A stretch of DNA of 64,000 bases, taken from contig NC_090418.1 in the NCBI RefSeq assembly GCF_036365525.1, forward strand, positions 14,198,248-14,262,247, in the 5' to 3' direction. A program made the position numbers and the translations under genes. This document shows positions 3,026 to 60,818 of the stretch, in pieces. Every line of letters begins with the position of its first letter. Position 1 is the first letter of the stretch. The notes beneath the pieces were generated by a model that worked only from the letters and a program-made list of their open reading frames with translations, was not told the DNA's origin and did not search any database. This stretch comes from Heterodontus francisci. Lineage: Eukaryota.

Positions 3026-3366
3026 GTATTCGGATGAGGAATTTAGCAGTAGCATTCCCTTCTGATCTGACACAGATTTATATTTGTTCTCCTACAATTT
3101 ATCAAATGATGAAGCAAGTTAGCAATTGGCAAACTCTCATTCACCACAGATCAAAATCTGCTTTATTCAAGAACAGGCAAATGGTACAGACAACTGAGCA
3201 TGATAATATGTTCGATGTAATCATTTCAACATCTGCCTGGAAATTAAACACATTCCGAATAGCACAGGGAGAACCGGTGGGGGAGGGGGTGGGGGTGCAG
3301 CGGTGGGGGTTGAGGGGTGGGGGTGGCTTCAATTGATAACGCATCTGCAGATATTGTGAGATCATT

Positions 3367-22974: not shown

Positions 22975-24276
22975 TGTTGCAAATGGGGAGGCGCTGGAGT
23001 AGTGGTATTGTAATTGGACTATAGATCAAAAAAACACGGTATTGCTCTGTGGACTTTGTTTCGAATCAAACCACAGCAGAAGGTGGAATTTGAATTCAAT
23101 TAATAAATCTGGAATTAAAAGCTCGTCTAATGTTGGCCATGAAACCATTGTTGATTGTTGCAAAAACCAGTCTGGTTAAATCACCTCCTTCAGAGAAGAA
23201 CATTGTCTGTAAGGTATGCTTCCATGAGTATGACTATGTCAGGCTGCTGCTTGACGAGTCTGTGGGACAGCTCTCCCTACATTGGCACAAGCCCACATAT
23301 ATTATTAAGGAGGTATTTGCAGGGTCGACAGGGCTGGGCTATCCTTACCTGATCTGGCCTACATGTGACTCCAGACGAACGCAATGTGATCGATATTTAT
23401 ATGCCCTCTGAAATGGCCTAGCAAGCCACTCAATTGTGCCTTACTGCGACAAAGTCAATAAAAGAGAATGAAATCGGATGGAAGATCTGTCATCGACCTA
23501 GGCACCTGAAATGACAACGGCAAGCCCAGCCCTGTCCACCCTGCAAAGTCGTCCTTAATAACATCTGTGGGCTTGTGCCAATGTTGAGAGAGCTGTCCCA
23601 CAGACTAGTCAAGCAGCAGCCTGACATGGTCATACTCCCGGAAGCATACCTTACTGACAATGTCCCAGACCCAATCATCGCCATCCCGGCATATGTCCTG
23701 ATCCACTGGCTGGACAGACCCAGCAGAGGTGGCGATGCAGTGGTATACAGGTGGGATGGAGTTGACCTGGGACTCCTCAACATCGACTTTGGACCCTACG
23801 AAGTCACATGGCAACGTAACGTCCTGCTTAATACCATCTACTGACCTCCTTCAGCTGATCAGACAGTACTCCTCCATGTTCAACACGACTTGCAGGAAGC
23901 ACTGAGGTCGGCAAGAGCACAGAATGTGCTCGGGATGGGGACTTCAATGTTCATCACCAAGAGTGGCTCGGTAGTACCACGACTGGCCGAGTTCCAAAGG
24001 ACATAACTGCTAGAGTGGGTAAACGGCAAAAGGTGAGGGAAAAACATACTTGACCTTGTCCTCATGAATCTGCCTCCGACAGATGCATCTGTCCATGACA
24101 GTATTGGTAGGAGTGACCACCGCACAGTCCTTCAGGAGACAAAGTCACGCCTTCACATTGAGGATACTTACAATATGCTAAATGGGATAGATTTCGAACA
24201 GATCTAGCAATTTCAAACTGAGCATCCATGAGGCGTCGTGGGCCAGCAGCAGCAGCAGAACTGTACTCAACCACAA

Positions 24277-24856
24277 GTGAGGTATCAGCTGGGAAGGTGA
24301 GTTTCAGCTTCAAGTAAATTACCTTTTGTTTTAGCGGACCAGGCGACTGCTGGGTAAGTAAACCTACATATTTGGGCCGTTTAAAATAACTTACCTTTTG
24401 GTGCAGCAGCTTTTTCTGAAGCAGCGCTAGTGCGAGCGAGGTATCAGCTGGAAAGGTAAGTTTCAGCTTAAAGTAAATTACCTTTTGTTTCGACGGACCA
24501 GGGGACAGCTGGGTAAGTAAACCTATATATTTGGGCAGTTTAAAATAACTTACCTTTTGTTGCAGCAGCTTTTTCTGAAGCAGCGATAGTGCGAGCGAGG
24601 TATCAGCTGGGAAGGTGAGTTTCAGTTTAAAGTAAATTACCTTTTGTTTCGGCGGACCAGGGGACTGCTGGGTAGGTAAAACTATATATTTGGGCAGTTT
24701 AAAATAACTTACCTTTTGTTGCAGCAGCTTTTTCTGAAGCAGCAATAGTGCGAGCAAGGTTTCAGCTGGGAAGGTGAGTTTCAGCTTAAACTAAATTACC
24801 TATTGTTCGGCGGACCAGGGGACTGCTGGGTAAGTAAACCTATATATTTGGGCAGT
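24277..24856 (+). repeat. 159-bp tandem monomer array (~3.6 copies) forming the CR1 5' end
   Basis: gaggtatcagctgg recurs at 24279, 24438, 24597 and (variant) 24756. Confidence 0.95.
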
Positions 24857-27314: not shown

Positions 27315-28760
27315 GTGGAACAGGCTGATATGCTTGAACAAGTTGAGGTTAAGAGGGAGGATGTGCTAGAAATTTTGAATATGAGGATAGATAAGCCCCC
27401 GGGGCCAGACGGGATATACCCAAGGATATTATGGGAAATGAGGGAAGAGATGGCCGCGCCTTTGGCGATGATCTTTGCATCTTCACTGTTCACTGGAGTA
27501 GTACCGGATGATTGGAGGGTGGCAAATGTTGTTCCCTTGTTCAAGAAAGGGAATAGGGATAACCCTGGGAATTATAGACCAGTCAGTCTTACGTTGGTAG
27601 TGGGAAAATTATTGGAGAGGATTCTGAGAGACAGGATTTATGATTATTTGGAAAAGCATAGTTTGATTAGAGATAGTCAGCATGGCTTTGTGAGGGGCAG
27701 GTCATGCCTCACAAGCCTTATTGAATTCTTTGAAGATGTGACAAAACACATTGATGAAGGAAGAGCAGTGGATGTGGTGTATATGGATTTCAGCAAGGCC
27801 TTTGATAAGGTTCCCCATGGTAGGCTCATTCAGAAAGTAAGGAGGCATGGGATACAGGGAAAGGTGGCTGTCTGGATACAAAATTGGCTGGCCCATAGAA
27901 GTCAGAGGGTGGTTGTAGATGGAAAGTATTCAACATGGAGCTCGGTGACCAGTGGTGTTCCGCAGGGATCTGTTCTGGGACCTCTGCTCTTTGTGATTTT
28001 TATAAATGACTTGGATGAGGAAGTGGAAGGCTGGGTTAGCAAGTTTGCCGATGACACGAAGGTTGCTGGAGTTATGGATAGTGTGGAAGGCTGTTGTAGT
28101 TTGCAACGGGACATTGACAGGATGGATAGCTGGGCTGAGAAGTGGCAGGTGGTGTTCAACCTGGAAAAGTGTGAAGTGATTCATTTTGGAAGGTCGAATT
28201 TGAATGCAGAATACAGGCTTAAAGACAGGATTCTTGGTAGTGTGGAGGAACAGAGGGATCTTGGGGTCCATGTCCATAGATCGCTCAAAGTTGCCGCCCA
28301 AGTTGATAGGGTTGTTAAGAAGGCGTATGGTGTGTTGGCTTTCATTAACAGGGGTATTGAGTTTAAGAGCCACGAGGTTATGCTGCAGCTCTATAAGGCC
28401 CTGGTTCGACCACACTTGGAATATTGTGTTCAGTTCTGGTCGCCTCATTATCGTAAGGATGTGGAAGCTTTAGAGAGGGTGCAGAGGAGATTTACCAGGA
28501 TGCTGCCTGGACTGGAGGGCATGTCCTACGAAGAAAGATTGAGGGAGCTAGGGCTTTTCTCATTGGAGCAGAGAAGGAAGAGTGGTGACTTGATCGAGGG
28601 GTGCAAGATGATGACAGGCATAGATAGAGTGGATCGTCAGAGACTTTTTCCCAGGGTGGAATGGGCTGTCACCAGGGGGCATAATTTTAGTGTTATTGGA
28701 GGAAGGTTTCGGGGAGATGTCAGAGGTAGGTTCTTTACACAGAGAATGGTGGGTGCGTAG
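27315..28760 (+). pseudogene. CR1 ORF2 reverse transcriptase segment (longest open piece, 481 aa)
   Basis: Complete RT motifs, but separated from the APE domain by stops/frameshifts and ending in a premature stop. Confidence 0.85.
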
Positions 28761-29620
28761 AATGCACTGCCAGCGGTGGTAGAGAAGCAGATACATTAGG
28801 GGCATTTAAGCGACTCTTGGATAGCAGAATGAAGGGTTGGTAATTGCTTAGATCTTAGAGTAGGTTAAAGGTTCGGCACAACATCGTGGGCCGAAGGGCC
28901 TGTACTGTGCTGTACTGTTCTATGTTCTATGGAACCTCATGGCCAGGCATGTCCCCCACTCTACCATCACCACTAAGCCAGGAGACCAACCATGGTTCAA
29001 CGAAGAGTGCTTGAGGGCATGTCAGGAGCAGCACCAGGCATGCTTCAAAATGGGGTGGCAATCTGGTAAAGCTACAAAGCAGGAATACCTGTGCACCAGA
29101 CTGCTTAAGCAGCTTGCGACAGACAGAGCTAAGTGATCCCATGACACACGTATCAGATATAAGATCTGCAGTCCTGCTACATTCCGCCGTTAATGGTGGT
29201 GGACAATTAAACAACCAACTGGAGCAGGTGCCTCCACAAAAGTCCCCATCTTCAATGATGGGGGAGCCCAGAACATCAGTGCAGAAGATAACACTGAAGC
29301 ATTTGCAACAAACTTCAGCCAGAAGTGCAGAGTTGATAATCCATCTCGGCCTCCTCCTTAAGTCGCCAGCATTACAGATGCCAGACTTCATCCAATTCGA
29401 TTCCCTCTGCATGATATCAAGAAACGACTAAGGCACTGGACACTGCAAAGGCTACCAGCCTGACAATATTCTGGCAATAGTCCTGAAGATCTGTGCTGCA
29501 GACGTTGCTGCACCCCAGCCAGGCTGTTCCACTACAGCTACAACACTGCAATCTAACCGGCAATGTCCTGTACACAAAATGCACGACAATTCTAACCCAG
29601 CCAAATACCGACCAATCAGT

Positions 29621-31045
29621 AATAAAACAAGAAATGCTTGAACCACTCAGCAGGTCTGGCAGCATCTGTGAAAAGAGAAGCAGAGTTAACATTTTGGGTC
29701 AGTGACCCTTCATCGGAACTGACAAATATTAGAAAAGTCACAGGTTATAAGCAACTGAGGTGGGGGTGGGGCAAGAGATAACAAAGGAGGTCTAGATTGG
29801 ACCAGGCCACATAGCTGACCAAAAGATCACGGAGCAAAGGCAAACAATATGTTAATGGTATGTTGAAAGACGAAGCATTAGTGCAGATTAGGTGTTAATA
29901 CACTGAATATTGAACAGCAGCAAGTGCAAACCTGAAAAAAAACAACAGTGTGTAAGTAAACTGAACAAACTAAGATGAAATGAAATAAATGCAAAAAGAG
30001 ATTGTAAAACATGTAAAAAAGAATGTAAAAAAAAAGGAATAAAAAGATAACTAAAAATGAAAGTAAAATGGGGGGCTGTCATGCTCTGAAATTATTGAAC
30101 TCAATGTTCTGTCCAGCAGGCTGCAGTGTGCCTAATCGGCAGATGAGATGCTGTTCCTCGAGCTTGCGTTGATGTTCACTGGAACACTGCAGCAATCCCA
30201 GGACAGACATGTGAGCATGAGAGCAGGGGGGGGTGTTGAAATGGCAAGCAACTGGAAGCTCAGGGTCCTGCTTGCGGACTGAGCTGAGATGTTCCTCAAA
30301 GCGGTCACCCAGTCTGCGCTTGGTCTCCCCAATGTAGAGGAGACCACACTGTGAGCAGCGAATACAGTATACGACGTTGAAAGAAGTACAAGTAAATCGC
30401 TGCTTCACCTGAAAGGAGTGTTTGGGGCCTGGGACAGTGAGGAGAGAGGAGGTAAATGTGCTGGTATTACACCTCCTGCGATTGCAGGGGAAGGTGCCAT
30501 GGGACGGGGACGAGGTGGTGGGTGTAATGGACGAGTGGACCAGGGAGTCGCGGAGGGAATGATCCCTTCAGAATGCTGACAGGGGAAGGGAGGGAAAGAT
30601 GCGACTGTTAGTGGCATCACGCTGGAGGTGGCGAAAATGGCGGAGGATGATCCTTTGGGTATGGAGGCTGATGGGGTGAAAAGTAAGGACAAGGGGAACC
30701 CTGTCATGGTTCTGGGAGGGAGGGGAAGGGGTGAGGGTAGAGGTGCGGGGAATGGGCCAGATACGGTTGAGGGCCCTTACAACCACAGTGGGGGGAAAAC
30801 CTCGGTTGAGGAAAAAGGAGATCATATTAGAGGCACCGTCATGGAGTGTAGCATCATCAGAGCAGATGCGACGGAGACGGAGAAACTGGGAGAATGGAAT
30901 GGAGTCCTTACAGGAGGTAGGGTGTGAAGAAGTGTAGTCGAGGTAGCTGTGGAAGTCGGTGGGCTTATAATGGATATTAGAGGACACCCTATCCCCAGAG
31001 ATGGAGACAGAGAAGTCAAGGAAGGGAAGGGAAGTGTCAGAGATG
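29621..31045 (-). mobile_element. 5'-truncated Penelope-like element (RT C-terminus + GIY-YIG)
   Basis: HYKPTDFHSYLDYTSSHP; VVYCIRCSQCGLLYIGETKR; 14-bp TSD ACCGACCAATCAGT at 29607 and 31046. Confidence 0.93.
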
Positions 31046-32747
31046 ACCGACCAATCAGTCTTCTCTCAACCATCAGTAAAGTGATGGAAGGTGCCCTCAA
31101 CAGTGCCATCAAGTGGCACTTGCTTCGCAATAACCTGCTCAGTGATGCTCAGTTTGGTGTCCACCAGGGCCATTCAGCTCCTGACCTCATTACAGCCTTG
31201 GTTCAAACACGGACAAAAGAGCAGAACTCAAGACGTGAGGTGAGAGTGACTGCCCTTGACATCAAGGCAGCATTTGACCGAGTATGGCATTAAGGAGCCC
31301 TAGCAAAGTGGTCAATGGGAATCAGGGGTGAGGGGAGGGGGAACACTTTGCTGGTCGGAGTCATAGCTCGCACACAGGACGATGGTTGTGTTTTTTTTTT
31401 GCAGATCAATCATCTGAACTGCAGGACATAACAGCAGGAGTTCCTCGGCGTAATGTCCCAGGCCCAATCATCTTCAGCTGTTTCATCAATGACTTTCCTT
31501 CAATCATAAGGTCAGAAGTGGGGATGTCAGCTGATAATGGCACAATGTTCAGCATCATTCACGGCTCCTCAAATACTGAACAAAGACTGGACAGTATCCA
31601 GGCTTGGGCTAATAAGTGGCAAGTGACATTCGTGTCACACAAGTATATTCTCCAACAACAGAGAAACAAACCATCTTCCCTTGAAATTCAATGGCATTAC
31701 TATTCCTGAATCGCCCATTATCAACATCCTAGGGGCTACCATTGACCAGAAACTGAACTGGAGTAGCCCTATAAATACCGTAGCTACAGGGAAGGTCAGA
31801 GGCAGAAATTGAACTGGAGTAGCCATATAAAAACCATATCTACAAGAGCAGGTCAGAGGCTAGGAATCCTGCGGCAAGTAACTCACCTCCTGACTCCCCA
31901 AAGCCTGTCCACCATCTACAAGGCGTAAGTCAGGAGTGTGATGGAATACTGTCCACTTGCCTGGATGGATGCTGCTCCAACAACACTCCAGAAGCTCGCT
32001 GGATTTACACACCAACTACAATTATTTACTCCATCCACCACTGATGCACGGTGGTAGCAGTGTGTACCATCTACAGGATGCACTGCAGCAATGCAACAAG
32101 GCTCCTTAGACAGTCCCTTCCAAACATGCGACCTCTATCAACTGGAAGGACAAAGGCAGCATATGCATGGGAACACCACCACTTGCAATTTCCACTTCAC
32201 GTCACTCACCATCCTGACTTGGAACTATATCGCCATTCCTTCACTGTCACTGGGTCAAAATCCTGGAACTCCCTTCCTAACAGCATTGTGGGTGTACCGA
32301 CCTCACATGGACTGCAAAGGTTCAAGAAGGCAGCTCACTACCTCCTCCTCAACGGAAAGTAGGGACGGGCAATATATGCTGGCCTAGCCAACGAAGCCCA
32401 CGTCCCACGAATGAATAAAAAGTCCCGATGAAGGGACTTTATCAATGCTTTTTTGAAAGTCCATATAAATGACATCCATAGACATCCCACTACTTTTGTC
32501 ACCTCTTCAAAAAATCCAATCAGCTTCGTCTAGGATGACCTAGCCTTTATAAATCCACGCTGGCTCCCTGATTAGCTGAAGAATTTCTAGTTGTTTAGTT
32601 GCCCTATCAACGAAGAACAAAGGACAAAGAACCTGTGCCGATCTTGATGCCTTCCTAAACTAAAACATTCTGCACTTCCCCTGCCCATATCCCTCTATTC
32701 CCTTCCTATTCATGTATTTGTCAAGATAACTCTTAAACGTCGCTATT

Positions 32748-43679: not shown

Positions 43680-44525
43680 TGTTGTACTTGCATTTTAACG
43701 TTTAGTGGTTCATATTTGTACAAGGACACCCAAATCCGTCTGAAGTGCAGACTCTGAAGTTTCTCTCCATGTAAATAAAATTCGGCTTTCCTATTCTTCC
43801 GACCAAAGTCGGGAACCTCACATTTTTTCATGTTATACTCCGTCAGTCAAATTTTTGCCCACTCACTTAATCTGTGTATATGTCTTTGCAGACACTTTAT
43901 GTCCTTCTCAAAAATTGCTTTCCCACTTGTCTTTGTATCGTCTGCAAATTTAGGTACAATACACTAGGTCCCTTAATCCAATCCAAGAATATAGATCGTT
44001 AATTGTTGAAGCCCCTGCACTGAGCCCTGTGGCACACCACTATTTACAGTTTGCCACCCTGAAAATGCCCAATTTATCCCAACACCCTGTTTCCTGTTTG
44101 TTAGCCAATCGTTTATCCATTCTAAAATATTATCCGCAACATCATGAGACATTGTCTTGTGTAGCAGCCTTTTATGTAGCACCTTATCGGATGCCTTTTG
44201 GCAATCCAAATGCACTATATCTACTGGTTGCCCTTTATCCACCCTGCATGTTACATCCTTTAAGAACTCTTAATAATATTTTCAAGCACGATTTCCCTTT
44301 CGTGAAACCATGTCGCCTCTGGCTGATTACGTTACGATTTTCTAAATGTCTTGCTTTCAATTTATTAATAACAGATTCCAAAATTTTCGCATTAACCTAT
44401 GTTAAATAACTGGGCTATAGTTTCCTTATTTCTGTCTGCCTCCTTTCTTGAATAGATGTATTTCATTTGCGGATTTCCAATCTCTGGGACCTTTCCAGGA
44501 TCTAGGGAATTTTAGGAGATTATAA
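43680..44525 (-). mobile_element. CR1 ORF2 fragment (orthologous to ~1220-1875)
   Basis: VDIVHLDCQKASDKV..SGVPQGSV in minus translation. Confidence 0.85.
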
Positions 44526-45696
44526 CCGAATCCTTTATTCACCCTCTTTCTCCTCTTGACTATTTGATCCAGGTGTGCATCCCTCTGCATGTAACAAAGA
44601 TACTCAATTTCCTGAACAAACGTTGCACTGGAAGTTTATAATGTTCAGCAGCATGGAGTGGTGGGAGGGCATTAGCACCTAAGATGAACATCATGATCAC
44701 AATAAATAGATCAGCTGTGCAGATGCGGCTCCAACTCACAACCTCGGCATTTCCCGAAACTACCGTCACAATGCGGCATCAGACTGACAAATTGCACCAT
44801 GATAACCGTTTGTGTGTGTTTGCTGTCCCAGTATGCGGAAGAAAAAAACCTTAACGTGAGAGTTTCTTGCCTGTGGAAACGGGTCCAATGCGCTTGAGGA
44901 AATTATCAAATGAACTTTCATTTTCAGTTTCGTTTATATTGTTTACTACATCTCACGACACTCGGAATTTATGAAAATAATGGACACGTGGTGTCTTTCT
45001 GGAGCCTGCCACTGAATAACAAACTCTGCCAGCAACAGAACATATCGTCATTTGCACAAGCACAATAATCGAATGCATAGAAAAGAGGATTCAACAGGCT
45101 TATGATTATTGGTCTACAATATAAGAAAGGATAGAAATGAAACAGATTTTCTTGTGGTTTCACGCTCTATCTATTGTGGCCGCAGTGTGACTCAAATGAG
45201 TCAACGATTACAGAAAAAAAGCACCATCCAAACTGTAGCTTAAACTCGGGACTTTCGAGCCCGACAAATAGAAGCTAACTGGATTATTGGGCCAGCTTTC
45301 TGAATTTCTAATTTAGAGACAGTTCCAGGACCTTTGTAAGTGTTGTACCGGGCTCCACAATTTTACTTTACTGGGCCGCGTGACTCTGCTGTACTGGATT
45401 TCGTAAGTATGATGAATCCAGTAGCCGAACCACCCGGGAGTGAACATCACTGGTACCCAGAAGACTGTTGTGACAGGACCTCGGGAGTGTACGATACTTG
45501 TACCCGCAGTTATGCTGTACTGATCCTGGGAGTGTGGTGTACCTCGGCAGCGACTGCATTATATGAAGACCCGGGTGTATGCCACAGCTGGACAGGGCAG
45601 TGTGCTCACATAGGACCTTCGAATGTGCGTTATTCGGTTACAGGATTTCGATGTAGTTCTAACCGAGCATGTGCTGCACAGTAAACCAGGGCTGTG

Positions 45697-47545
45697 TTTT
45701 TATTTTTTTATTTAGAGATACAGCACTGAAACAGGCCCTTCGGCCCACCGCATCTGTGCTGACCATCAACCACCCATTTATACTAATCCTGCACTAATCC
45801 CACCACATCCCAACATTCCCCTACCACCTACCTATACTAGGGGGCAATTTATAATGGCCAATGTACAGCATTGTGGGGAAAGTCTTTGCTCGAGTCGCTC
45901 TGAACAGGCTCCAGAAGCTGGCCGAGCGCGTCTACCCTGAGGCACAGTGTGGCTTTCGTGCAGAGAGATCGACTATTGACATGCTGTTCTCCCTTCGTCA
46001 GATACAGGAGAAATGCCGTGAACAACAGATGCCCCTCTACATTGCTTTCATTGATCTCACCAAAGCCTTTGACCTCGTCAGCAGACGTGGTCTCTTCAGA
46101 CTACTAGAAAAGATCGGATGTCCACCAAAGCTACTAAGTATCATCACCTCATTCCATGACAATATGAAAGGCACAATTCAACATGGTGGCTCCTCATCAG
46201 AGCCCTTCCCTATCCTGAGTGGTGTGAAACAGGGCTGTGTTCTCGCACCCACACTTTTTGGGATTTTCTTCTCCCTGCTGCTTTCACATGCGTTCAAATC
46301 CTCTGAAGAAGGAATTTTCCTCCACACAAGATCAGGGGGCAGGTTGTTCAACCTTGCCCGTCTAAGAGCGAAGTCCAAAGTACGGAAAGTCCTCATCAGA
46401 GAACTCCTCTTTGCTGACGATGCTGCTTTAACATCTCACACTGAAGAATGCCTGCAGAGTCTCATCGACAGGTTTGCGTCTGCCTGCAATGAATTTGGCC
46501 TAACCATCAGCCTCAAGAAAACGAACATCATGGGGCAGGATGTCAGAAATGCTCCATCCATCAATATTGGCGACCACGCTCTGGAAGTGGTTCAAAAGTT
46601 CACCTACCTAGGCTCAACTATCACCAGTAACCTGTCTCTAGATGCAGAAATCAACAAGCGCATGGGTAAGGCTTCCACTGCTATGTTCAGACTGGCCAAG
46701 AGAGTGTGGGAAAATGGCGCACTGACACGGAACACAAAAGTCCGAGTGTATCAGGCCTGTGTCCTCAGTACCTTGCTCTACGGCAGCGAGGCCTGGACAA
46801 CGTATGCCAGCCAAGAGCGACGTCTCAATTCATTCCATCTTCGCTGCCTTCGGAGAATACTTGGCATCAGGTGGCAGGACTATATCTCCAACACAGAAGT
46901 CCTTGAAGCGGCCAACATCCCCAGCTTATACACACTACTGAGTCAGCGGCGCTTGAGATGGCTTGGCCATGTGAGCCGCATGGAAGATGGCAGGATCCCC
47001 AAAGACACATTGTACAGCGAGCTCGCCACTGGTATCAGACCCACCGGCCGTCCATGTCTCCGTTATAAAGACGTCTGCAAACGCGACATGAAATCGTGTG
47101 ACATTGATCACAAGTCGTGGGAGTCAGTTGCCAGCATTCGCCAGAGCTGGCGGGCAGCCATAAAGACAGGGCTAAATTGTGGCGAGTCGAAGAGACTTAG
47201 TAGTTGGCAGGAAAAAAGACAGAGGCGCAAGGGGAGAGCCAACTGTGCAACAGCCCCAACAAACAAATTTCTCTGCAGCACCTGTGGAAGAGCCTGTCAC
47301 TCCAGAATTGGCCTTTATAGCCACTCCAGGCGCTGCTTCACAAACCACTGACCACCTCCAGGCGCGTATCCATTGTCTCTCGAGATAAGGAGGCCCAAAA
47401 GAATGTACCTACAAGTGGTGGGAGGAAACCGGAGTACCCGGTGAAAACCCACGCAGACACAGGGAGAACTTGCAAACTCCACACAGTCAGTACCCAGAAT
47501 TGAACTGTGAGGCTGCGGTGCTAACCACTGCGCCACTGTGCCGCC
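45697..47545 (-). mobile_element. HE1-like SINE split by an RTE insertion (45697-45866 and 47402-47545)
   Basis: Tail and head both match the SINE at 14637. Confidence 0.88.
45867..47401 (+). mobile_element. Young 5'-truncated RTE-clade LINE with uninterrupted RT ORF (to 47351)
   Basis: PEAQCGFRAERSTIDM, FIDLTKAFDLV, GVKQGCVLAPTLF, LFADD, YGSEAW, C-terminal CxxC..H; 7-bp TSD AATGTAC at 45860 and 47402. Confidence 0.95.
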
Positions 47546-48460
47546 TGCGTTGTACCTGTTCATTTGCTGTACCGGACTTGTGGTGTGTATCATACCGGCA
47601 CATGTAATATGCTGTACAGGTACCAGAAAGTGTGCTGTCCTGGGTCCCAGGAGCATGCGATCCGGAGACACGTGCATGCGACGTTCCGCGGCCCTGGAAT
47701 TTGCTCCACTACAACTGGGGAATGTATAGCTCCGGGGCTCATGGGTGCGCTGTACCGGGATTCAGGACAGATATTGTGTGCTGTTCCCGGACCGGGGAGT
47801 GAGCGGTATTCGGATCAAGAACATAGCAGCAGCATTCACTTGTGATCTGACCCAGATTTCTATGTGTCCTCCTACGATGTGTCCTCTTCCGAAAGATGAA
47901 ACAAATTATCAAAAGCCAAAGTACCTATGGCACAGTTCACAATCTGCTTGGCTATAACAGGCAAATGGTACAGAGCAACGATATGATGTAATATGTACCG
48001 TGTAATTATGTAAACATCTGCTTGAAAACTAAATAACACATTTAGGACGACGACTGAGTAGAGGAGGGTGGTGGTGGACCTAGATGTGCCAGGGGTACTT
48101 GCAATTTAATCGGAAAATGTCAGGTTTCTTCTCTATTGATCCCAATGACGGTGGAGAAATCAATGACCTTCGCAATCTCTCTTTTTCCTGCTGCCTTTAC
48201 GTTTTTCCTGATCCTGTCCTGTCTTTCAAATCATGTTGCTCCAAATATTAAAGCAAAGGTCAAAAAAACTTGTCATCACTGAGATATTAAAGACTCCGTG
48301 ACTGACATGGCAATGAGAGCTAATGGTCCATGTTGGAGAGAAATATCACACCAAGTGTTCATTCCCAACGTACCCCTGAATTGTATACTCGGGCAGGGTT
48401 CTGTAAAGTGGTAAACCACACTTTGGCTGAAAACACATCTGCAGAAAGTGTGAGATCGTT

Positions 48461-51400
48461 TCATCGTATTAACTTGGCCACCTTTCTGAGAGGATATTTC
48501 CCTCCACTCCTCAACTCCTGCCTGAATTTCCATTTACACGCCTTCATTCCATTCATTGCCTATGGAGAAACAACCAATCTCAGTTTTGAAATTTTCGATT
48601 CACCTTGTCTAACTGGGTTTTTAGGGGGAAAATTTCCAGATTTACACTTCTCATTGTCTGAAACAGATCTAATAATGACCCAAAAGCAGACAATATAGAG
48701 AGCTTTACAGGGCATTGGTTAGACCACATGAGGAGTACTGTGTACAATATTGGTCTCCTTATTTAATGAAGCATTTAATGCGTTGGTAACAGATCAGTGG
48801 TTGACCAGACCAATACCCAGAATGGGCAGTTGTCTTCCGAGGAAAGTTTGGATAGGCTAGACTTGTATCCGCTGGAGTTTAGAATAGTAGGAGGCGACTT
48901 GATTGAAACATAACATGATTAAAAATATGGGGTTGCCAATTTAAAAATATGAGAAGATTTATTTTCTCTCAGACGGTCATGCGTCTTTGTAACTCTTTTA
49001 TCCAAAGGCAGTAGACGCATAGTATTTGAATATTTTAAGGGCAGAGGTAGATAGATTCGTGATAAGCAAGGTGGCGAATGGTTATTGGGGGCATGCGGGA
49101 ATATGGAGTTGAGGTTGTAATCAGATTAGACATGAGGAGAAATATAAAATTGTCAGAACAAGCAGCAAACCTGAGGATTGGGAGCAGTTTGGAATTCAGC
49201 AAAGGAGGACAAAGGGATTGATTAAGAAGGGGAAAATAGAGTATGAGAGTAAGCTTGCAGAGAACATAAAAACTGACTGTAAAAAGCTTCTCCAGATATG
49301 TGAAGAGAAAAAGATTAGTTAAGACAAAAGACAGTCAGAAACGGGGGAATTTATAATGGGAAACAAAGAAATGGTAGACCAATTAAACACATAATTTGGT
49401 TCCATCTTCACAAAGTAGGACACAAATTACCTCCCAGAAATGTTGGGGAACATGGGCTGTAGTGAGAAGGAGGAACTGTATGAAATCAATATTAGTAAGG
49501 AAATGGTGTTTGGGAAATTGACAGGATTAAAGGCCAGTAAATCCCCAGGGCCTGATAATCTACATCCCAGAGTAATTTCTGAAGTGGCCCAAGAAGTAGT
49601 AGATGCATTGACGGTCATTTTTCAAAATTCTATGGACTATGGAGAGTTCCAACTGATTGGAGAGTAGCTAATATAACACTACTATTTAAAAAGGAGGTGG
49701 AGAGAAAACAAGAAGTTATAGACCGGTTACCCTGATATCAATAATAGGAAAAATGCTGGAGTCCATTATAAAAGATGTAATGCCAAAGTACTTGGAAAAC
49801 AGTGACAAAATCAACATGGATTTACAAAAGGGAAATCATGCTTGACAAATATACTGGAATTTTTGAGGATATAACTAGTTTAATAGATAAGGGAGTGGAT
49901 GTGGTTTATTTGGACTTTCAGAAGGTTTTCGATAACGTGACACATGAGAGATAAAAGTGCAAAATTAAAGCACATGGGGGTTGGGGGTAAAGTACTGACA
50001 TGGATAGAGAACTGGCTGGGTGACAGGAAACAAAGAGTAGGGGTAAACGTGTCTTTTTCCAAGTGGCAGGTAGTGACTAGTGTGATACCGCAGGGATCAG
50101 AGCTAGGAATCCAGCTAGTCACAATATATATTAATGATGTAGAAGAGGGAATTAAATGTAATATATCCAAGTTTTCTGATGACACAAATAGGGGTGGGAG
50201 AGTGAAATGTCAGGAGGATGCAGAGAAGCTCCACTGTGATTTGGACAGGTTGAGTGAGTGGCCAAACCATGTCAGATGCAGTACAATGTGGATAAATGTG
50301 AGGTTATCCACTTTGGAGGCAAAAACTGGATTATTATCTGAACGGTGATAGATTGGGAAAGGGGGAGGTGCAGCGAGACCTGGGTGTCCTTGTACACCAG
50401 TTGCTGTAAGTAAGCATGCAGGTGCATCAGGCAGTTAAGAAGGCAAATGGTATGTTGGCATTTATAGCGAGAGGGTTCAAGTATAGAAGCAGGGATGTCT
50501 TGCTGCAGTTATACAAGGCCCTGTGGAGACCACACCTTGAGTATTGTGCGTAGTTTTGGTCTCCTTATCTGACGAAGGATTCTCTTGCTATGGAGGGAGT
50601 GCAGCGAAGGTTCACCAGACCGATTCCTGGGATCGCAGGACTGATGTATGAAGAGAGATTGGGTCGATTAGGCTTGTATTCGCTAGAGTTTAGAGGAATG
50701 AGATAGGATCTCATAAAAACCTACAACATTCTAACAGGACTGGACGGATGCAGGAAGGATGTTCCGAATGGCGAGGGAGTCCAGGACCAGGGATCACAGT
50801 CTGGATAAAAGGTAAACCATTTAGGGTTGAGATGAGGAGAGATTTCTTCACCCAGAGACTGGTGAACCGGTGGAATTCTCCACCACGGAAAGCAGTTGAG
50901 GCTAAATCGTTAAATATTTTCAAGAAAGAGTTGATATAGTTCCTAGGGTTAAAGGGATCAAGCGATACGGGACTAAAGTGGGAAAGGTGTACTGAGTTTG
51001 GATGATCAGCCATGATTGTATTGAGTGGTGGAGCAGACTCGAAGGGCCAAATGGCCTACTCCTGCTTCTATTTTTCTATTTTTCTATGTTTCTATGTTTC
51101 TATGCTTCTATCCATTAAATGGTTGAGCAGGTGTGAGGAGCCAAGTGGCTTACTCCTGCTCCAATTTGTATGTTCGAATGTATGCACGCAATAATCATTG
51201 AGTTGATATGAAGGAAAGTGTTTTCACATCCATCGAAAACAAGCCATCATCGAATATACACGTAGAAAAAGATAGAATGATGTTAACAGGAAAAGAGAAA
51301 AAGAAACACTGAAAGAAACACAGAAAGAAAGAAAGAAAAAAGTAATAAATAAATAAAGACAAAATGAATAAAAGAAAGGAAGGATTCATATCTATAGATA

Positions 51401-51688
51401 CTAACCACAAACTGCAATCATCCAAAAGAACTTTACAGCGAGTGAAGTTCCTTTCACATGTATTCACTGCTATGATTTTGAATTGTAGTCACTGTTGAAA
51501 TGTAGGAAGGTATTACAGTAAATATCTGGAAGTAAGGACTAAGATTTCGCATACTGTTAAACTCCAGTACCAGCCCCCGGTAGTAACTTACCAGGGACAC
51601 CAATCACAGCCAAGATGGGGCAGTAAATCCTTTCGATATCATAAAGCGCCCAAAGAATCTTAAGCTTCATCAGAAAACCAAGAGACAC
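48461..51688 (-). pseudogene. GPR139-like GPCR copy 3, pseudogene (exon 1 51592-51688 kept; only the last ~70 nt of exon 2 kept)
   Basis: Exon 1 KLKILWALYDIERIYCPILAVIGVP G|GTAAGT; 48461-48529 reads KFRQELRSGGKYPLRKVAKLIR*, then jumps to intron-homologous sequence. Confidence 0.88.
48695..51180 (+). mobile_element. Nested decayed CR1 copies in the copy-3 intron (inner element ~49135-51105)
   Basis: KSPGPDNLHPRV, PQGSELG, KFSDDT, RRDFFTQR; (TTTCTATG)n tail at ~51085-51104. Confidence 0.85.
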
Positions 51689-52385
51689 TATTTTCCCTTT
51701 TGGTATGAATCGATGATTGTTGTTGTTGATGCTGGGAAGAAATTCTCTGATTGATACATTGAGAGGATCCCCATTCTTTATAGGAGTAAACAAAATCAAT
51801 TAGTTAAGATAATTGGGTCCCATGCTGCCTGGGCTTACTTACAGTCATTGAACAAACAGATGAAATCAACAGCATTCACTCCAAGATTTTTTAACAAAAA
51901 CAGCAACATTTCCAAATACATATTGCCCTGAAGACCAGGTTAAAGCTACACCTTCATACACTCTTGCACGTCCCACAATCCTAAGAAGTATTTTCACAGA
52001 TTTATTTTTTTCAAAAACAAAGTAAGTGACATTGGGTTAGCCCAGTTTCATCAAAAAAAGGCCGAACAAACGTGCTCCTATTCGAGAGGAAGACCAATAA
52101 AAAACTGAAGCAAAGAAGCTATAGAAGGGAATTTTAAGATGTTAAAAAACATTATTTCCAGTTTCTATCAAGCCCTCTGTACTTGCGGTGCAATTGGCAA
52201 AGGTGCTGCCTGGTTTGCTGATTGTTTCCAGCATTTTGTGCTTATATTTCATCTTGCAGCATCCACAATATTGCTTTTGTTTGAATAATTTTAAAATACA
52301 GCCTTAACATTAATTTTTGGCTCCATGGTGAATAAAACGAATTCCAGTTGATGATACTCGTCAGAGTATGTACGTTATACAGTCG

Positions 52386-52470
52386 GGAAGGAAGGAAGGG
52401 AGGGAGGAAAGGAGGAAGGAAGGAAGGAAGGAAGGAATGAAGGAATGAAGGAAGGAAGGAAGGGAGGGAA
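52386..52470 (+). repeat. (GGAA)n microsatellite
   Basis: Direct reading; much shorter at paralogous sites ~6093 and ~16328. Confidence 0.9.
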
Positions 52471-52704
52471 TCTCATCACTGTTTTAATGCGGGCAATATT
52501 GTAATAATCGATAGTCAAAATTTAGAGCAAAGTCCTGGAGACGGTTGATGAGTGATTCTTCTGTATTTTAATCAAAAGGTTAACATTCCTGCTTAACTAA
52601 CAGGAAGACAGATTTGAAACCATAACATCAAATGTTTGCACGTTATCACCACACTGCCAAATTTTAAAGTTTTATCATGGTGATTATCTCAACAAGGGTT
52701 TAAT

Positions 52705-55700
52705 TGGAGAGGCGGTGGTGTAGTGATACTGTCATTGGACTAGTAACCCAGAGACCCAGGGTATTGCTCTGGGGATATGTGTTCAAATCCCAACACAGCA
52801 AAAGGTGGAATTTGAATTCAATTAATAGCTCTGGAATTAAAAAATCTAGTCTAATGATGGCCATGAAACCATTGTCAATTGTTGTAAAAACCCACCTGGC
52901 TCACTAAAGTCCTTTAGGGAAGAAAATCTGCTGTCCTTAGCTGGTCTGGCCTACATGTGAGTCCAGACCCACAGCAATGTGGTTGACTCTTACATGCCCT
53001 CTGAAGTGGCCGAGCAAGCCACTCAGTTGTATCGAACCACAACAAAGTCAATAAAAAGGAATGAAACTGGTTGGAACACCCGGTGTCGACCTAGCAGGGG
53101 CAGGCATTCAGTGCAGGAATCCCCTGTGGCTGTCCCCCTCTCTGCCAAGTATGCAATTTTGGATACTGCTTGGCAGGACGGCCTATCAGGGGAAAACAAC
53201 AGCAGCAGCCAGAGCAGTGGCACCACGGCTGGCTCTGTTGTTCAACAGGGAGGGACAAAGCACAGAAGAGCAATAGTTATAGGGGGCTCTAAAGTCAGGG
53301 TCGCAGAAGGGCGCTTCAGAGTGAAAGAGACTCCAGGATGGTATGGTGCCTCCCTGGCGGCTGGGTCAAGGATGTCTCTGAATGGGCAGGGGGCATTCTG
53401 AAGGGGGAGTGCGAACAGTACATATTAGTACCAATGACATAGGCAGAAAGAGTGACGAGGTCCTGCAGGTGGAGTTCAGGGAATTAGGTAGTAAGTTAAA
53501 AACAACAGGACCTCTAGGGATGTAATCTCGGGATTGCTCCCTATGCCACGTGCCAGTGAGGCTAGAAATAGGAAGATAGTGCATCTAAACACGTGGTTAA
53601 ACAGCTGGTGTAGGAGGGAGGGTTTCAGATATCTGGATCATTGGGATCTATTCCGGGATAGGTGGGACCTATACAAGAAGGACGGGTTGCATCGAAACTG
53701 GAGGGGCACAAATATCCTGGCTGCGAGGTTTGCCAGTGTAACTCGGGAGGGTTTAAACTAGTATGGCAGGAGGATGGGAACCAGAGTGGTAGGTCAGCAG
53801 GTGAAATAACTGAGGGGGAACTAGTGAATAAGGCTAGTAAGACTGACAGAAATAGCAGGCAGAGAGATGTTGCAGAGCACAGCGGGACTGGTGGTCTGAA
53901 GTGCATTTGTTTCAATGCGAGAAGTATAACAGGTAAGGCAGATGAACTTATAGCTTGGAGTAGTACTTGGAACTATGATATTGTTGCTATTACCGACACT
54001 TGGTTGATGGAAGGACAGGATTTACATCTAAACCTTCCAGGATTTGGAAGCTTCAGGCGGGAGAGAGGGGGATGTAAAAGGGGTGGGGAGTTGCGTTACT
54101 GGTTAAGGAGAATATCGCAGCTGGACTGCAGGAGGACACCTCGGAGGGCTCATGCAGCAAGGCAATATGGGTTGAGCTCAGGAATAGGAAGGGGGTTGTT
54201 ACTACAGGCCTCCCAACAGCCGGCGGGAGATAGAGGAGCAGACAGATTTTGGAAAGCTGTAAAACCAACAGGGTTGTTGTGGTGGGTGATTTTAAAGTCC
54301 CCTATATTGACTGGGACTCACTTCGTGCGAGGGGCTTGAATGGGGCAGAATTTGTAAAGAGCATTCAGGAGGGCTTCTTGAAACAATATGTAGATAGTCC
54401 AACTAGGGATGGGGCCGTACTGGACCTGGCATTGGGGAATGAGCCCGGCCAGGTGGTCGAAGTTTCAGTAGGGGTGCATTTCGGGAACAGTGACCATAAT
54501 TTCGTAAGTTTTAAGGTACTTGTGGATAAGGATAAGAGTAGTCCTCGGGTGAAGGTGCTAAATTGGGAGAAGGCTAATTATAACAATATAGGCAGGAACT
54601 GAAGAATTTAAATTGGGGGCGGCTGTTTGACGGTAAATCAACATCTGACATGTGGGAGTCTTTCAAACGTCAGTTGATTAGAATCCAGGACCAGCATGTT
54701 CCTGTGAAGATGAAGGATAAGTTTGGCAAGTTTCTTGGAAGCTTGGATAACGAGGGATATTGTGAGCCTAGTCAAAAAGAAAAAGGAAGCATTCGTAAGG
54801 GCCAGAAGGCTGGGATCAGATGATGCCCTTGAGGAATATAAAGATAGTAGGAAGCAACTTAAGCAAAGAGTCAGGAGGCCTAAAAGGGGTTATGAAAAGT
54901 CATTGGCAAACTGGATTCAGGAGAATCCCAAAGCTTTTTATACGTATATAAAGAGCAAAAGTGTAGTCAGGAAAAAGGTTGGCCCACTCAAGAGCAGAGG
55001 AGGGAATCTATGCGTGGAGCCAGAGGAAATGGACGAGGTACTAAATGAGTCCTTTGCATCACTATTCACCAAAGAGAAGGACTTTGTGAATGATGAGTCT
55101 AGGGAAGGGAGTGTAGCTAGTCTGGGTCATGTCGTTATCAAAAAGGAGGAGGTGTTGGGCGTCTTGCAAAGCATTATGGCAGATAAGTCCTCAGAACCTG
55201 ATGGCAAATGCTCCAGAATATTGAGGAAGGAAAAGGAGGCAATTGCTGGGGCCATGACAGAAATCTTTGTATCCTCATTGGCTACAGGTGAGGTCCCAGA
55301 GGTCTGGAGAATAACCAATGTTGTTCCTTTGTTTAGGAAGGATAACAAGGATAATCCAGGAAATTACAGGCCGACGAGCCTTACGTCAGAGGTAGGGAAA
55401 TTATTGGAGAGGATTCTTAGGGACAGGATTTACTCCCATTTGGAAACAAATGGACTTTTGAGCGAGAGGCAGCATGTTTTTGTGAAGGGGAGGTCGTGTC
55501 TCACCAGCTTGATTGAGTTTTTTGAGGAAGTGACGAAGATGATTGATGAAGCAAGGGCAATTAATGTTGCCTACATGGACTTCTTAAAGCCTTTGACATG
55601 GTCCCTCATGGCAGACTGGTATAAAAGGTGAAGTCACACGGGGTCAGAAGTGAGCTGGCAAGATGGATACAGAACTGGCTCGGTCATAGAAGACAAAGAG

Positions 55701-58700
55701 TAGCAGTGGAATGGTGCGTTTTTGAATGGAGAGCTGTGATTAGTGGTGTTGCACAGGGATCAGTGCAGGGACCTTTGCCGTTTGTATTATATATAAATGA
55801 TTTGGAGGAAAATGTAGCTGGTCTGATTAGTAAGTTTGCGGACGACACAATGATTGGTGGAATTGCGGATAGTGATGAGGATTGTCAGAGGATACAGCAG
55901 CATACAGATCGGTTGTAAACTTGCGCAGAGAAATGGCAGATGAAGCATAATCCGGACAAATGTGAGGTAATGTATTTTGGAAGGTCTAATACAGGTGGGA
56001 AGTATACAGTAAATGGCGAACCCTTAGGAGTATTGACAGGGAGAGAGATCTGGGCGTACAGGTCCACAGACCACTGAAAGTGGCAACGCAGGTGGATAAG
56101 TTGGTCAAGAAGGCACACGGCATGCTTGTCTTCATCGGTCGGGGCATAGAGTATAAAAAATTGGCAAGTCATGCTGCAGCTGTACAGAACGTTATTTAGG
56201 CCACACTTGGGATATTGCATACAATTCTGATTGCCACACTAGCAGAAAGATGTGGAGGCTTCGGAGAAGGCACAGAGGAGGTTTACCAGGATGTTTCTTG
56301 GTCTGGAGGGTATTAGCTATGAGGAGAGGTTGGATAAACTCGGATTGTTTTCACTGGAACGACGGAGATGGAGGGGCGACGTGATAGAGGTTTACATATT
56401 TATGTGTGGCATGGACAGAGTGGATAGTCAGAAGCTTTTTCCCAGGGTGAAAGAGTCATTTATAAGGGAACATATGTTTAAGGTGCGAGGCGCAAAGTTT
56501 AGCGGAGATGTGCGAGTCAAGATGTTTGCACAGAGGGTGGTGAGTGCCTGGAACTTGCTGCTGGGAGAGGTTGTGGAAGCAGGTACGTTTAAGAGGGATC
56601 TTGACAAACACATGAATAGGATGGTAATGGAGGGATACGGACCCCGGAAGTGCGGAAGGATTTAGTTTAGACAGGCATCATGATTGGCGCAGGCTTGGAG
56701 GGCCGAATGGCCTGTTCCTGTGCTGTACTGTTCTTTGTAGGCACCAGAACTGACAACGGCAAACCGAACCCTGTCGACCCTACAACGTGCTCCTTACTCA
56801 CATCTGGGGGCCTCTGCCATAGATGGGAGAGCTGTCCCACAGACTAGTCAAGCAACAACCTGAAATAGTAATACTCACGAATCATACTTGAAAGACAATG
56901 TCCCAGAGACTGCCATCACCATCTTCAAATATGTCCTGTCCCACCGACAGGACAGACCCAGCAGAGATGGCAGCACGATGATATACAGTCGGGAGGGAGT
57001 TGCCCTGGGAGTCCTCAACATCGACTCTGGACCCCATGCGGTTTCATGGCATCCGATCAAACATGGACATGGAAACCTCCTGCTGATTACCACCTACCAC
57101 CCTCCCTCAGCTGATGAGTCCGTACTCCTCCATGTTGAACAGCACTTGGAGGAAGCACTGAGGGTGGCAAAGGCACAGAATTTACTCTGGGTGGGGGACT
57201 TCAATGTCCATCACCAAAAGTGGCTCGGTCGCACCACTACTGTCCGAGCTGGCCGAGTCCTAAACGTCAAATCTGCTAGAATGGGTATGCGACAGGTGGT
57301 GAGGGAACCATAAAGAGGGGAAAACATATTTGACCTCGTCCTCACCAATCTGCCTGCCGCAGATGCATCTGTCCATGACAGTATTGGTAGAAGTGACCAC
57401 CGCACAGTCCTTGTGGAGATGAAGTCCTGGCTTCACATTGAGGACACGCTCCTTCGTGTTGTGTGGTACTACCACCGTGCTAAATGAGATAGATTTCGAA
57501 CAGATCTAGCAATGCAAAACTGGGTATCCATGAGGTGCTGTGTGCCATCAGCAGCAGCAAAATTCTATTCGATCACAATCTGCAAACTCATGGCCCAGCA
57601 TATCCCCCACACTGTCATTACCAACAAGCCAGGAGACCAATCTTGGTTCAATGAAGAGTGCACGAGGGCAAGCCAGGAGTAGCACCAGGCAGACCTCAAA
57701 AATGAGGTGTCAACCTGGTGAAACTACAGAGCAGGACTATCTGCATGCCAACCCTGCGTAAGCAGCATGCGATAGACAGAGCTAATCGATCCCATAACCA
57801 ACTGATCAGATCTAAGCTCTGCAATCCTGCCATATCCAGCCGTGAATGGTGGTGGACAATTAAACACCTAACTGGAGGAGGTGGTTCCACAAATATCCCC
57901 ATCCTCAATGATGGGGGAGCCCAGCACATCAGTGCGAAAGATCAGGCTGAAGCATTTGCAACAATCTTCAGCCAGAAGTGCCGCATTGATGATCCATCTC
58001 CCCAGCTTCACAGATGCCAGACTTCAGCCAATTCGATTCAATCCACGTGATATCAAGAAATGACTGAAGGCACTGGATACTACAAAGGCTATGGGCCCTG
58101 ACAATATTCCGGCCATAGTACTGAAGAGCTGTGCTCCAGAACTACCCATGCCCCGAGCCAAGCTGTTCCAGTATAGGTATGACACTGGCATCTACCCTGC
58201 AATGTGGAAGATTGCTCTGGAATTTCCTGTGCACAAAAAGCAGGACAAGTCCAACCCAGCCAATTACCGCCCCATCAGACTACTCTCACTCATCACTAAA
58301 GTGATGGAAGGTGTCATCAACAGTGCAATAAGATGGCACTTGCTTTACCATAACCTGCTCAGTGACACTCAGTTTGGGTTCCGCCAGGGCCACGCAGCTC
58401 CTGAACTCATTTCAGCCTTGGTTCAAACATGGACAAAAGAGCTGAACTCAAGAGGTGAGATGAGAGTGACTGCCTTTGGCATCAATGCAGTATTTGACCG
58501 AATATGGCATCAAGGAACCCTAGCAAAACTGAGGTCAATGGGAATCAGGGGGAAAACCCTCCACTGGCTGGAGTCATACCTAGTGCAAAGGAAGATGTTT
58601 TTGGTTGTTGGAGGTCAATCATCTGAGCTCGAGGATATCACTGCAGGAGTTCCTCAGGGTAGTGTTCCTAGGCCCAACCATCTTCAGCTGCTTCATCAAT

Positions 58701-59603
58701 GACCTTCCTTCAACCATAAGGTCAGATGTGGGGATGTTCGCTGACTCCTCAGATACTGAAGCAATCTGTGTAGAAATGCAGCAAGATCTGGACAATATCC
58801 AGGCTTGGGATGATAAGTGGCAAGTAACATTCGCGCCACAGAAGTGCCTGGCAATGACCATCTCCAATAAGAGAGAATCTAACCATCTCCCCTTGACAGT
58901 CAATGGCATTACCATCCCTGAATCCCCCACTATCAACATCTTAGGGGCTACTATTGACCAGAAAGTGAACTGGAGTAGCCACGTAAATACTGTGGCTACA
59001 AGAGCAGGTCAGAGGCTAGGAATCCCGCGGCGAGTAACTCACCTCCTGACTCCCCAAAATCTGTTCACCATCTACAAGGCACAAGTCAGGAGTATGATGG
59101 AATACTCTCCACTTGCCTGGATGGGTGGAGCTCCAACAATACTCAAGAAGCTCGACAACATCCAGGACAAAGCAGCCCGCTTGATTGGCACCCCATCTAC
59201 AAACATTCACTCCCTCCACCACCACTGCACAATCGCAGTAATGTGTACCATCTCCAAGATGCAATGTAGCAATGCACCAAGGCTCCTTAGATAGCATCTT
59301 CCAAACCTGCGACCTCTACCAACTAGAAGGACAAGAGCAGCAAATGCATGGGAACAACACCACCTGCAAGTTTCCCTCCAAGTCACACACCATACTGACT
59401 TGGAACTATATAGCCATTCCTTCACTGTCACTGGGTCAAAATCCTGGAACTCCCTTCCTAACAACACTGTGGATGTACCTAACCCACATGGGCTCCAGCA
59501 GTTCAAGAAGGCATCTCACCACCACCTTCTTAAGGACAATTAGATATGGGTAATAAATGCTGACCTGGCCAGCAACGATCGCATCCCATGAATGGGAAAA
59601 AAA
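52705..59603 (+). mobile_element. LINE-A copy 2 (tRNA-headed CR1-group APE-RT element, ~3.25 kb net), interrupted by a CR1
   Basis: A box 52716, B box GTTCAAATCC 52781, APE (VGDFNVHH), RT (GPDNIP, YRPI, QFGFR, VPQGS, MFAD), tail + A run; absent from the paralogous site ~6345. Confidence 0.92.
53095..56737 (+). mobile_element. 5'-truncated CR1 LINE (partial ORF1 esterase + decayed ORF2)
   Basis: SPVAVPLS, WDLYKKDGLH, FNARS, GNYRP, KFADDT; tail ctgtgctgtactgttctttg; host LINE-A rejoins as gacctag/gcacc. Confidence 0.92.
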
Positions 59604-59759
59604 TAAACTAACGTTTAGAGAATTTCTAACTGGTGAAATTGTCTAGTAACAGATGTTGAATTCTGTCGCTGACTCTGTCTTCGTACTGATTGTGCCATTC
59701 TTTGTCTGTTTATTATCTTAAGCGACCAACACTATAGCCTACTCCATTCATTCTGTGCA

Positions 59760-60818
59760 TTATTTTTATTCCTGTGTGGGTGGTAAGTGTCACTAAGAGA
59801 GCCAGAATTTGTCGTCCAACCCTAAATGCCTTTGTGAAGATCGCGGTGAGCCACCTTCTTGAACTACTGCATTCTTGCTGGTATAAGTACACCCAGAGAT
59901 CTGTTAGGGTGTGAGTTCATGGTTTTTGCCCAGTGACAGTGAATGAACACCAATATAGTTCCCAGTCAGGAATGTGTGCGTCTTGCAGGAAAACTTTAAG
60001 GTGGTGGCTTCTCCATACATCTGCTGGTCTGGTCCTTCTAGCTACTGGATGTCGTAGGTTTGGAATGTGCTGTTGAGAGACGTTTGTCGAGCTCCTGAAT
60101 CATGTATATTGTACACAATAGTACGACCGTGCTCTGGTGGTGGATGGTGTGAATGTTTAAGGTGTGCCACTCAAAGGGGCTCCTTTGTCCTGGATGGTGT
60201 CAGGCATGGGAGACTATTCCACTACACTCCTTGCTTGTGTCTTGCAGATGATAGACAGGCATTGCGGTGTCAGGAGGTGAGTTACTTGCCACATTATTAG
60301 GATCCTTTGACATGCTGTTGTAGCCACAGCATTTATATGACTGGTTCAGTTACGTTTCTAGTCAGAGGTAACTCTTCAGGATGTTCATGGTGGGGAATTC
60401 AGCGGTGGGAAAGCCATTGAATGTCAAGTGGAGATGGTTAGATTCCCTTTAGTTGGGGATGGTCATTGCCTGGAACTTGTATGATGTGATTGTTAATTGC
60501 AACTTATCAGCCCAAGCCTGAAAGTTGTCCAGGTCTTACTGCACACTGCTTCAATATCTGAGGAGTTGGGAATGGTGCTGAACATTGTGCAGACATCCAC
60601 ACTTCTGATCTTATTATGGAAGTAAGGTCATTGATGAAGCAGGTGAAGATGCTTGGACAAGCATACTATCCTAAGGAACGTCTGCAGTGATGTCCTGCGA
60701 TTGAGATGATTGACCTCCAACAACCACAACAACCTTTCTTTGCATTAGGTATGACACCATGAATCCCATTGATTCCAGTTTTGCAATGGATCCTTCATGC
60801 CACACTCAGTCAAATGCT
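59760..60818 (-). mobile_element. Old LINE-A 3' portion
   Basis: Reverse complement of LINE-A RT end and tail; paralogue of 37070-41066. Confidence 0.8.

Follow-up and report, generated by a model that had tools for sequence, protein, structure and literature searches.

A Zenon-type retrotransposon with a tRNA-derived head in the shark Heterodontus francisci, and its possible transcription by RNA polymerase III

The DNA analysed here (the window) is a stretch of 64,000 nucleotides (nt) from Heterodontus francisci (NCBI RefSeq assembly GCF_036365525.1, contig NC_090418.1, forward-strand positions 14,198,248 to 14,262,247), within which all window positions below are counted. At 52705-59603 it holds a decayed copy of an abundant shark long interspersed nuclear element (LINE), a 3.3-kb element of Zenon type with a tRNA-derived head. 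On the forward strand this copy, called copy 2 here, begins with the tRNA-Thr(AGT)-derived head at 52706-52800, where the A-box-like TGGTGTAGTGA begins at 52716 (A box 52716-52726) and the B box GTTCAAATCC at 52781 (52781-52790), exactly where both boxes had been placed in the initial annotation of the window. The head also includes an anticodon-loop remnant (52740-52746) and an A-B spacer enlarged by about 20 nt. It is followed by a non-coding body (52801-53014), which forms the rest of the 5' untranslated region (UTR) and is common to the short SINE-type derivatives (SINE, short interspersed nuclear element) described below. The body leads into the start of the single long frame, from element nt 310 onward (53015-53094), with a basic N-terminal stretch and a conserved out-of-frame ATG at 53061-53063. 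The copy is then broken by a canonical CR1 LINE on the same strand (53095-56737), a later and unrelated insertion with a 3-nt overlap at the junction; this nested 3.6-kb element makes up over half of 52705-59603. Beyond it the coding region for the endonuclease (APE) and reverse transcriptase (RT), interrupted by stops and frameshifts, spans 56738-59543 (stop codon 59541-59543), and a short 3' UTR (59544-59603) contains AATAAA (59552-59557), a predicted stem-loop and an A tail. The reference for the window alignments was L063, a natural full-length copy from the same genome, to which 52706-53094 corresponds at nt 2-389 (91%) and 56738-59605 at nt 387-3285 (89%).

An older copy, copy 1, also lies on the forward strand. 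It is composed of the head, body and APE (22985-24276, about 80% to L063), a linker and RT part flanked by two nested inserts (28930-29619), and the remaining RT, C-terminus, 3' UTR and A tail (31043-32421). It aligns to L063 as five collinear pieces (22985-32420 to nt 2-3283, 80-85%), interrupted by a short inverted piece and the two nested inserts. Both copies are collinear with the reference, in agreement with the earlier proposal that they share one architecture once nested inserts are removed, and the reading frames of both are disrupted by stops and frameshifts. The proposal that copy 2 is an insertion relative to an empty site near 6345 was also upheld: its flanks are contiguous at this paralogous site (6335-6355, unstranded) and at a second one near 16590. 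The inverted piece within copy 1 (23200-23338, nt 551-413 of the same LINE) is 91% identical to the reference compared with about 80% for the rest of copy 1, and is likely a younger fragment inserted later. On the reverse strand, at 22626-22975, a short SINE-type derivative joins element nt 1-323 to nt 3215-3279 and stands head-to-head with copy 1, about 10 nt away. Inverted heads or tails adjoin other copies too (L018, L276), and such arrangements could reflect either 5' inversion or an insertion preference.

Across the genome the tRNA-headed architecture is real, family-wide and old. When the 6.0-Gb genome was searched with an APE-only query, 6092 candidates were obtained, and among the best 40, ranked by similarity, a full head was found directly 5' of APE in 23 of 39 non-self matches; the remainder had a partial head (6), the body alone (5) or neither (5, breaking near nt 350-390). 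Since these matches were ranked by similarity, a position-picked sample was added: a 23-mer from nt ~351-373 matches exactly at 3632 places, and the first 40 of them on chromosome 1 were taken. Of these copies, 28 extend to the full head and 12 begin at scattered positions from 38 to 348. Upstream of the 5'-truncated or headless copies of both samples the sequence has nothing in common at the junction, so that no alternative 5' UTR or ORF1 (open reading frame 1) was found. Nor did any head with its own separate ends occur among the genomic copies examined, and the separately flanked head that would mark a SINE lying in front of a LINE was thus not seen. One candidate for an alternative 5' region, the 1073-aa frame of L131, was rejected: it is a copy that lacks its 5' end and follows a CR1-type APE in frame. 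The resulting 1073-codon frame (L131, oriented 1174-4392) holds two endonuclease domains.

Similarity among copies stops sharply at a G-rich start that precedes the A box by about 10 nt. A set of 33 natural copies is complete from head to A tail, mostly about 3.27 kb long, diverging by 2.9-5.5% from the column majority, and all 33 have an A-rich 3' end (poly-A tail). Seven copies had flank matches, two of which were dropped (L075, a simple repeat, and L148, with matches to its own locus); the five with usable flanks interrupt another repeat, the two halves of which abut within -5 to +4 nt. No clear target-site duplications were seen around the whole unit: the 33 full-length copies have no excess (mean longest match 2.73 vs 2.56 in permuted flanks, P=0.15), and copy 2 has no recognisable duplication and 8 extra nt on its left flank. 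Furthermore, head variant 27 co-segregates with ORF variants as far as 3 kb away (Fisher P 4e-7 to 1e-3). The claim that head and coding region moved together is supported by the genome-wide copies, by this linkage and by six published elasmobranch sequences considered below, and the element represents a SINE-headed, protein-coding, ORF1-less LINE family.

Judged by its sequence, the head is derived from tRNA-Thr(AGT). A genuine tRNA-Thr(AGT) gene (L106) was found in the genome by pattern search, and the head aligns to it across the A box, the anticodon loop and the T arm, with about 20 extra spacer nt and an acceptor stem that is not conserved. The 5' end of the element falls about 3 nt upstream of the equivalent of mature tRNA +1. 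Since ARAGORN made no tRNA call on the heads when run on the window, and the head gave no Rfam match, the tRNA origin rests on the L106 alignment together with a tRNA-Thr(agt) call by ARAGORN on one other head copy (L117). Older copies (L116, by eye) suggest that the extra spacer piece is a duplicated anticodon arm.

In the majority sequence of the 33 copies a single frame of 975 codons extends over nt 310-3234, and one natural copy, L132, retains the head, a 941-aa open frame with Exo_endo_phos (APE) and RVT_1 (RT) domains, and the tail. There is no ORF1: just 309 nt precede the frame, and none of the ten upstream AUGs, the last of them at nt 356, begins a frame longer than 46 codons. ORF variants common to several copies are 28 silent to 18 replacement, compared with 419 to 1114 for private variants (P=3e-6). 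Since the shared variants are mostly silent against a neutral-like private background, the amplifying lineages needed the protein, and the ORF is under purifying selection in them. A protein search gave 14 matches, none of which was a full-length close relative. Annotated shark and ray proteins (P0005, P0013), one of them an aldo-keto reductase model, contain spliced-in pieces of the LINE protein at 82-85% identity; these pieces are probably annotation errors or exonisation.

The initial annotation left it undecided whether the family was catalogued. It is: Zenon has been reported from five elasmobranchs (CarCar_, ScyCan_, RhiTyp_, HypSab_ and SquAca_Zenon; PMC13343379, 2026) as elements without ORF1 and with poly-A tails that are not yet in repeat repositories, and these are likewise 3.2-3.3 kb long (statements on this and most other cited papers refer to the parts of them that were accessible). 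The assignment of the present element to Zenon, a member of the CR1 group, is based on its 5' match to the published rows, which over the displayed first 400 nt is close by eye. By eye also, all six elasmobranch rows in the supplement begin with a tRNA-Thr-type head, keep the A and B boxes around a variable spacer and have no TTTT in the displayed 400 nt, whereas three hagfish or coelacanth Zenon rows contain T runs and have no such head in their first 400 nt. The presence of the head in all six elasmobranch rows means that it predates the shark-ray split. The words tRNA, promoter, head and Pol III (RNA polymerase III) are absent from the text of that paper, and tRNA from its supplement. The tRNA-Thr head and the architecture are thus undescribed there, and the lack of T runs, the out-of-frame AUG and the SINE derivatives found here do not feature in its accessible parts. 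In a quick RT tree, built without the named Zenon proteins, L132 is placed apart from shark CR1 and is grouped with six relatives (SH-aLRT 98).

Pol III terminates at runs of at least four T on the coding strand (PMC3141230). On the coding strand of the 3302-column majority of the 33 copies there are no such runs (T4), as opposed to 13 runs of at least four A, 13 of C and 9 of G, and base shuffling gives a mean of 4.3 T4 runs (P=0.01). In synonymous shuffles, which hold the already T-poor codon usage fixed, TTT is found 4 times against an expected 12.7 (0 of 2000 shuffles as low), with A3, C3 and G3 as expected. Among the natural full-length copies 21 of 33 have no T4, and each of the window copies carries one. 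CR1, the family nested in copy 2, served as a control: all 15 CR1 ORFs taken from the same genome have 6-13 T4 runs and TTT at expectation, and their observed/expected ratio (o/e) for TT is about 1.2, compared with about 0.7 in the tRNA-headed LINE. A second control came from 80 metagenome loci with relatives of the element, of which the 56 with frames of at least 600 aa were kept and the 24 shorter were left out. All 56 have T4 runs (2-40 each; 36 and 20 in the two nearest relatives for which DNA was available), and L132 is the lowest of 58 rows both in TT o/e (0.73, next 0.86) and in TTT z-score. ARAGORN, run on 60 of the 80 metagenome loci, found no tRNA in any of them, which counts for little because most shark heads escape it too. 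An A/B-box pattern match was found in one of the 56 long-frame relatives, L222; there an A/B-box-like tRNA remnant (L222:182-235) lies about 1 kb upstream of a CR1-like frame on a metagenome contig.

Because the element combines a tRNA-derived head with a coding strand lacking TTTT, it is likely read by Pol III, and on this sequence evidence we consider it probable that elasmobranch Zenon is a LINE with a fixed tRNA-Thr head that is transcribed end to end by this polymerase. TFIIIC would bind the A and B boxes in the head, and Pol III would initiate at the G-rich bases that open the element some 10 nt ahead of the A box, traverse 3.3 kb without a terminator and stop at a T run in the flanking DNA. 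The weakest step is the next one, in which the uncapped RNA would be translated by a cap-independent route; candidate starts are a non-AUG codon near nt 310-370 or the out-of-frame AUG conserved at nt 356, followed by a -1 shift. As is established for LINEs, the encoded protein would next bind the 3' stem-loop and copy the RNA by target-primed reverse transcription. Reverse transcription would restore the internal promoter in every full-length copy, and an internal deletion would give a ready-made SINE, with promoter and tail, in one step. The complete scheme, that of a Pol III-transcribed 3.3-kb autonomous element whose 975-codon frame has been purged of terminators since before the shark-ray split, which is translated without an in-frame AUG and which spawns SINE families, we rate as slightly better than evenly balanced. 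Of the Pol III-driven autonomous LINE put forward in the initial annotation, the SINE-headed coding unit is supported, and the Pol III part has indirect support in the apparent purge of TTTT and TTT.

A number of observations weigh against transcription by Pol III or complicate it. Non-long-terminal-repeat elements are described as Pol II-transcribed (Pol II, RNA polymerase II), and weak Pol III processivity as limiting SINEs to 100-700 bp (Kojima 2024, PMC10886601). Because the element is poor in T (20%), composition may explain part of its T-run signal, and the T4 deficit under synonymous shuffling (0 vs 2.0, P=0.09) is not significant. Two TTVTT motifs remain, non-canonical terminator motifs are individually too rare to test, and shark Pol III is assumed to follow human termination rules. 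No AUG lies in frame before residue 210, 21 of the 22 copies scored have the last upstream AUG (nt 356) out of frame, and the AATAAA before the A tail fits Pol II equally. The subfamily split underlying the head-ORF linkage test partly mirrors the route by which the copies were collected (DNA vs protein query). Finally, all 30 bins are represented in four sets of contigs from four organisms, which also contain head-to-tail joints resembling the short derivatives; that these sets are RNA is a guess and they report no start, strand or cap, so they were not used as expression evidence.

Alternatively, the captured SINE 5' end may serve as an internal Pol II promoter, as is standard for LINEs (PMC10886601), and the lack of T runs may have a compositional or other constraint as its cause. 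An AATAAA and an A tail are present, capped RNA would make translation easier, and the T4 deficit taken alone has the P value of 0.09 just given. However, the depletion is limited to T runs and leaves A, C and G runs unaffected, and such a lack is seen in 0 of the 56 relatives and 0 of the 15 CR1 controls. In addition, by eye the A and B boxes are kept from the sharks to the ray in the displayed rows while the spacer changes, the element starts some 10 nt ahead of the A box, and ten upstream AUGs with no in-frame AUG fit cap-dependent scanning poorly. We regard a Pol II promoter as unlikely on balance. Somewhat more doubtful is a split cycle, in which the 3.3-kb RNA used as template for copying comes from Pol III and the protein is supplied in trans from capped host read-through of a few copies. 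Such a cycle would explain both the head and the T purge with no need for cap-independent translation. With 3632 exact 23-mer matches, the family is common enough to be part of many host transcripts, and fragments of it are present inside annotated shark and ray proteins. On the other hand, purifying selection on shared variants is easier to understand if every protein copies the RNA that encodes it, and the missing in-frame AUG is problematic here too.

It is also conceivable, though in our view improbable, that the tRNA-like head is a processing signal at which read-through RNA is cut by an RNase P-like activity, in the manner of the hepatitis delta virus-like ribozymes of R2, RTE and Ingi. 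One head copy folds well enough for the ARAGORN tRNA-Thr call, and ORF1-less LINEs with 5' processing signals have been described (PMC5786205, PMC6765202), but such a cut is at odds with a 5' end located about 3 nt upstream of the mature tRNA +1 equivalent and with an acceptor stem that is not kept, and the T purge is not predicted by it. A chance juxtaposition, with SINEs inserted before 5'-truncated LINEs in a genome dense in short and long copies, retains almost no probability. Most copies have an identical head-body-ORF junction with no tail between head and ORF, the same structure recurs in five other species, and the published elasmobranch rows, the head-ORF linkage and the chromosome-1 copy sample together refute it.

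A head-only query gave 29 non-self matches, 8 of which run into APE (two of them representing one duplicated locus) and 21 of which are short. Every short copy consists of the 5' part of the element joined to its 3' end with the middle removed. The junction 323^3215 is found in six copies and in the window derivative at 22626-22975, 337^3145-3149 in six, 352^3142 in three and 323^3212 in two; four further short-copy junctions were seen once each. A 23-mer across one of the junctions occurs 312 times as an exact match. The recurrence of the junctions indicates that the short derivatives amplified as SINE-like families, and the existence of several junctions, one of which leaves a piece of the APE frame in place, argues for descent of the present short families from the headed LINE. 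The derivatives are 350-730 nt long and non-coding, and the full element, unlike SINE2, is 3.3 kb long and coding. Since head and tail are common to both, shark annotation counts for 'SINE' and for 'Zenon' overlap.

Comparable derivatives are known elsewhere. Lepidopteran Zenon has likewise yielded, several times, short elements joining 5' and 3' parts (Persaeus; PMC6740152), but these are described as having no tRNA homology and no Pol III promoter, whereas the shark derivatives are tRNA-headed and SINE2-like. Bov-tA, SINE2_Gav and SINE2-1_ACar (PMC5786205) have the same composition of tRNA head, LINE 5' part and LINE 3' part; in SINEs of this type, however, the head was added to a non-autonomous derivative of a headless parent LINE, while here the coding parent itself is headed. 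RTE-1_DAn, a LINE said to contain a tRNA-like sequence (PMC5786205), may be a tRNA-headed precedent, but belongs to the RTE clade. R2 offers a parallel for translation, as its RNA is not a capped Pol II mRNA and is thought to be translated cap-independently (PMC6765202); it differs in being a Pol I co-transcript released by a ribozyme, in its site specificity, in its other type of endonuclease and in having no internal promoter. In sharks, SacSINE1 (Deu, L2 tail) and HE1 (V, HER1 tail) are likewise tRNA-headed short elements sharing a LINE tail (PMC5499810, PMC3747384). They are described as SINEs with L2 or HER1 partners, and were compared with the present derivatives by description alone. 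We take HER1 to be a CR1-type element. MetaSINE has a tRNA-Thr-like head, a type that agrees with the present one, followed by a 66-bp Meta domain; by eye no likeness to bivalve MetaSINE rows was seen in part of the supplement, no alignment having been made. In the openly searchable literature we found no description of a tRNA-headed or Pol III-transcribed autonomous LINE, which does not establish its absence from print.

In the usual division LINEs are coding and made by Pol II, and SINEs are short, non-coding and made by Pol III (PMC10886601). This division would no longer stand if a very abundant vertebrate LINE had a tRNA promoter and a coding strand free of terminators. To our knowledge, Pol III is not thought to make such long coding RNAs. 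If the proposal is true, the element would represent both a natural Pol III-made mRNA and a direct route from LINE to SINE, and two testable questions follow, namely whether Pol III makes a long natural mRNA and how that RNA is translated. SINEs that combine a tRNA head with the tail of a LINE could also have arisen in a simple way, through deletions in a headed parent of the kind seen here at several recurrent junctions.

Other features of the window are of separate interest. The young CR1 nested in copy 1 (24277-28929), of the same kind as that in copy 2, has tandem repeats of about 160 nt at its 5' end and a GDSL-esterase-like ORF1. A 498-codon RT frame of another LINE family (RVT_1, weak DUF6451) lies at 45855-47351 on the forward strand. 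Two paralogous 309-codon open frames on the reverse strand (3367-4296 and 13255-14184) are part of a tandem duplication, and the frame at 3367-4296 encodes a rhodopsin-family seven-transmembrane receptor (PF00001, E 5e-21); flanks of further paralogues are found near 43767-60000.

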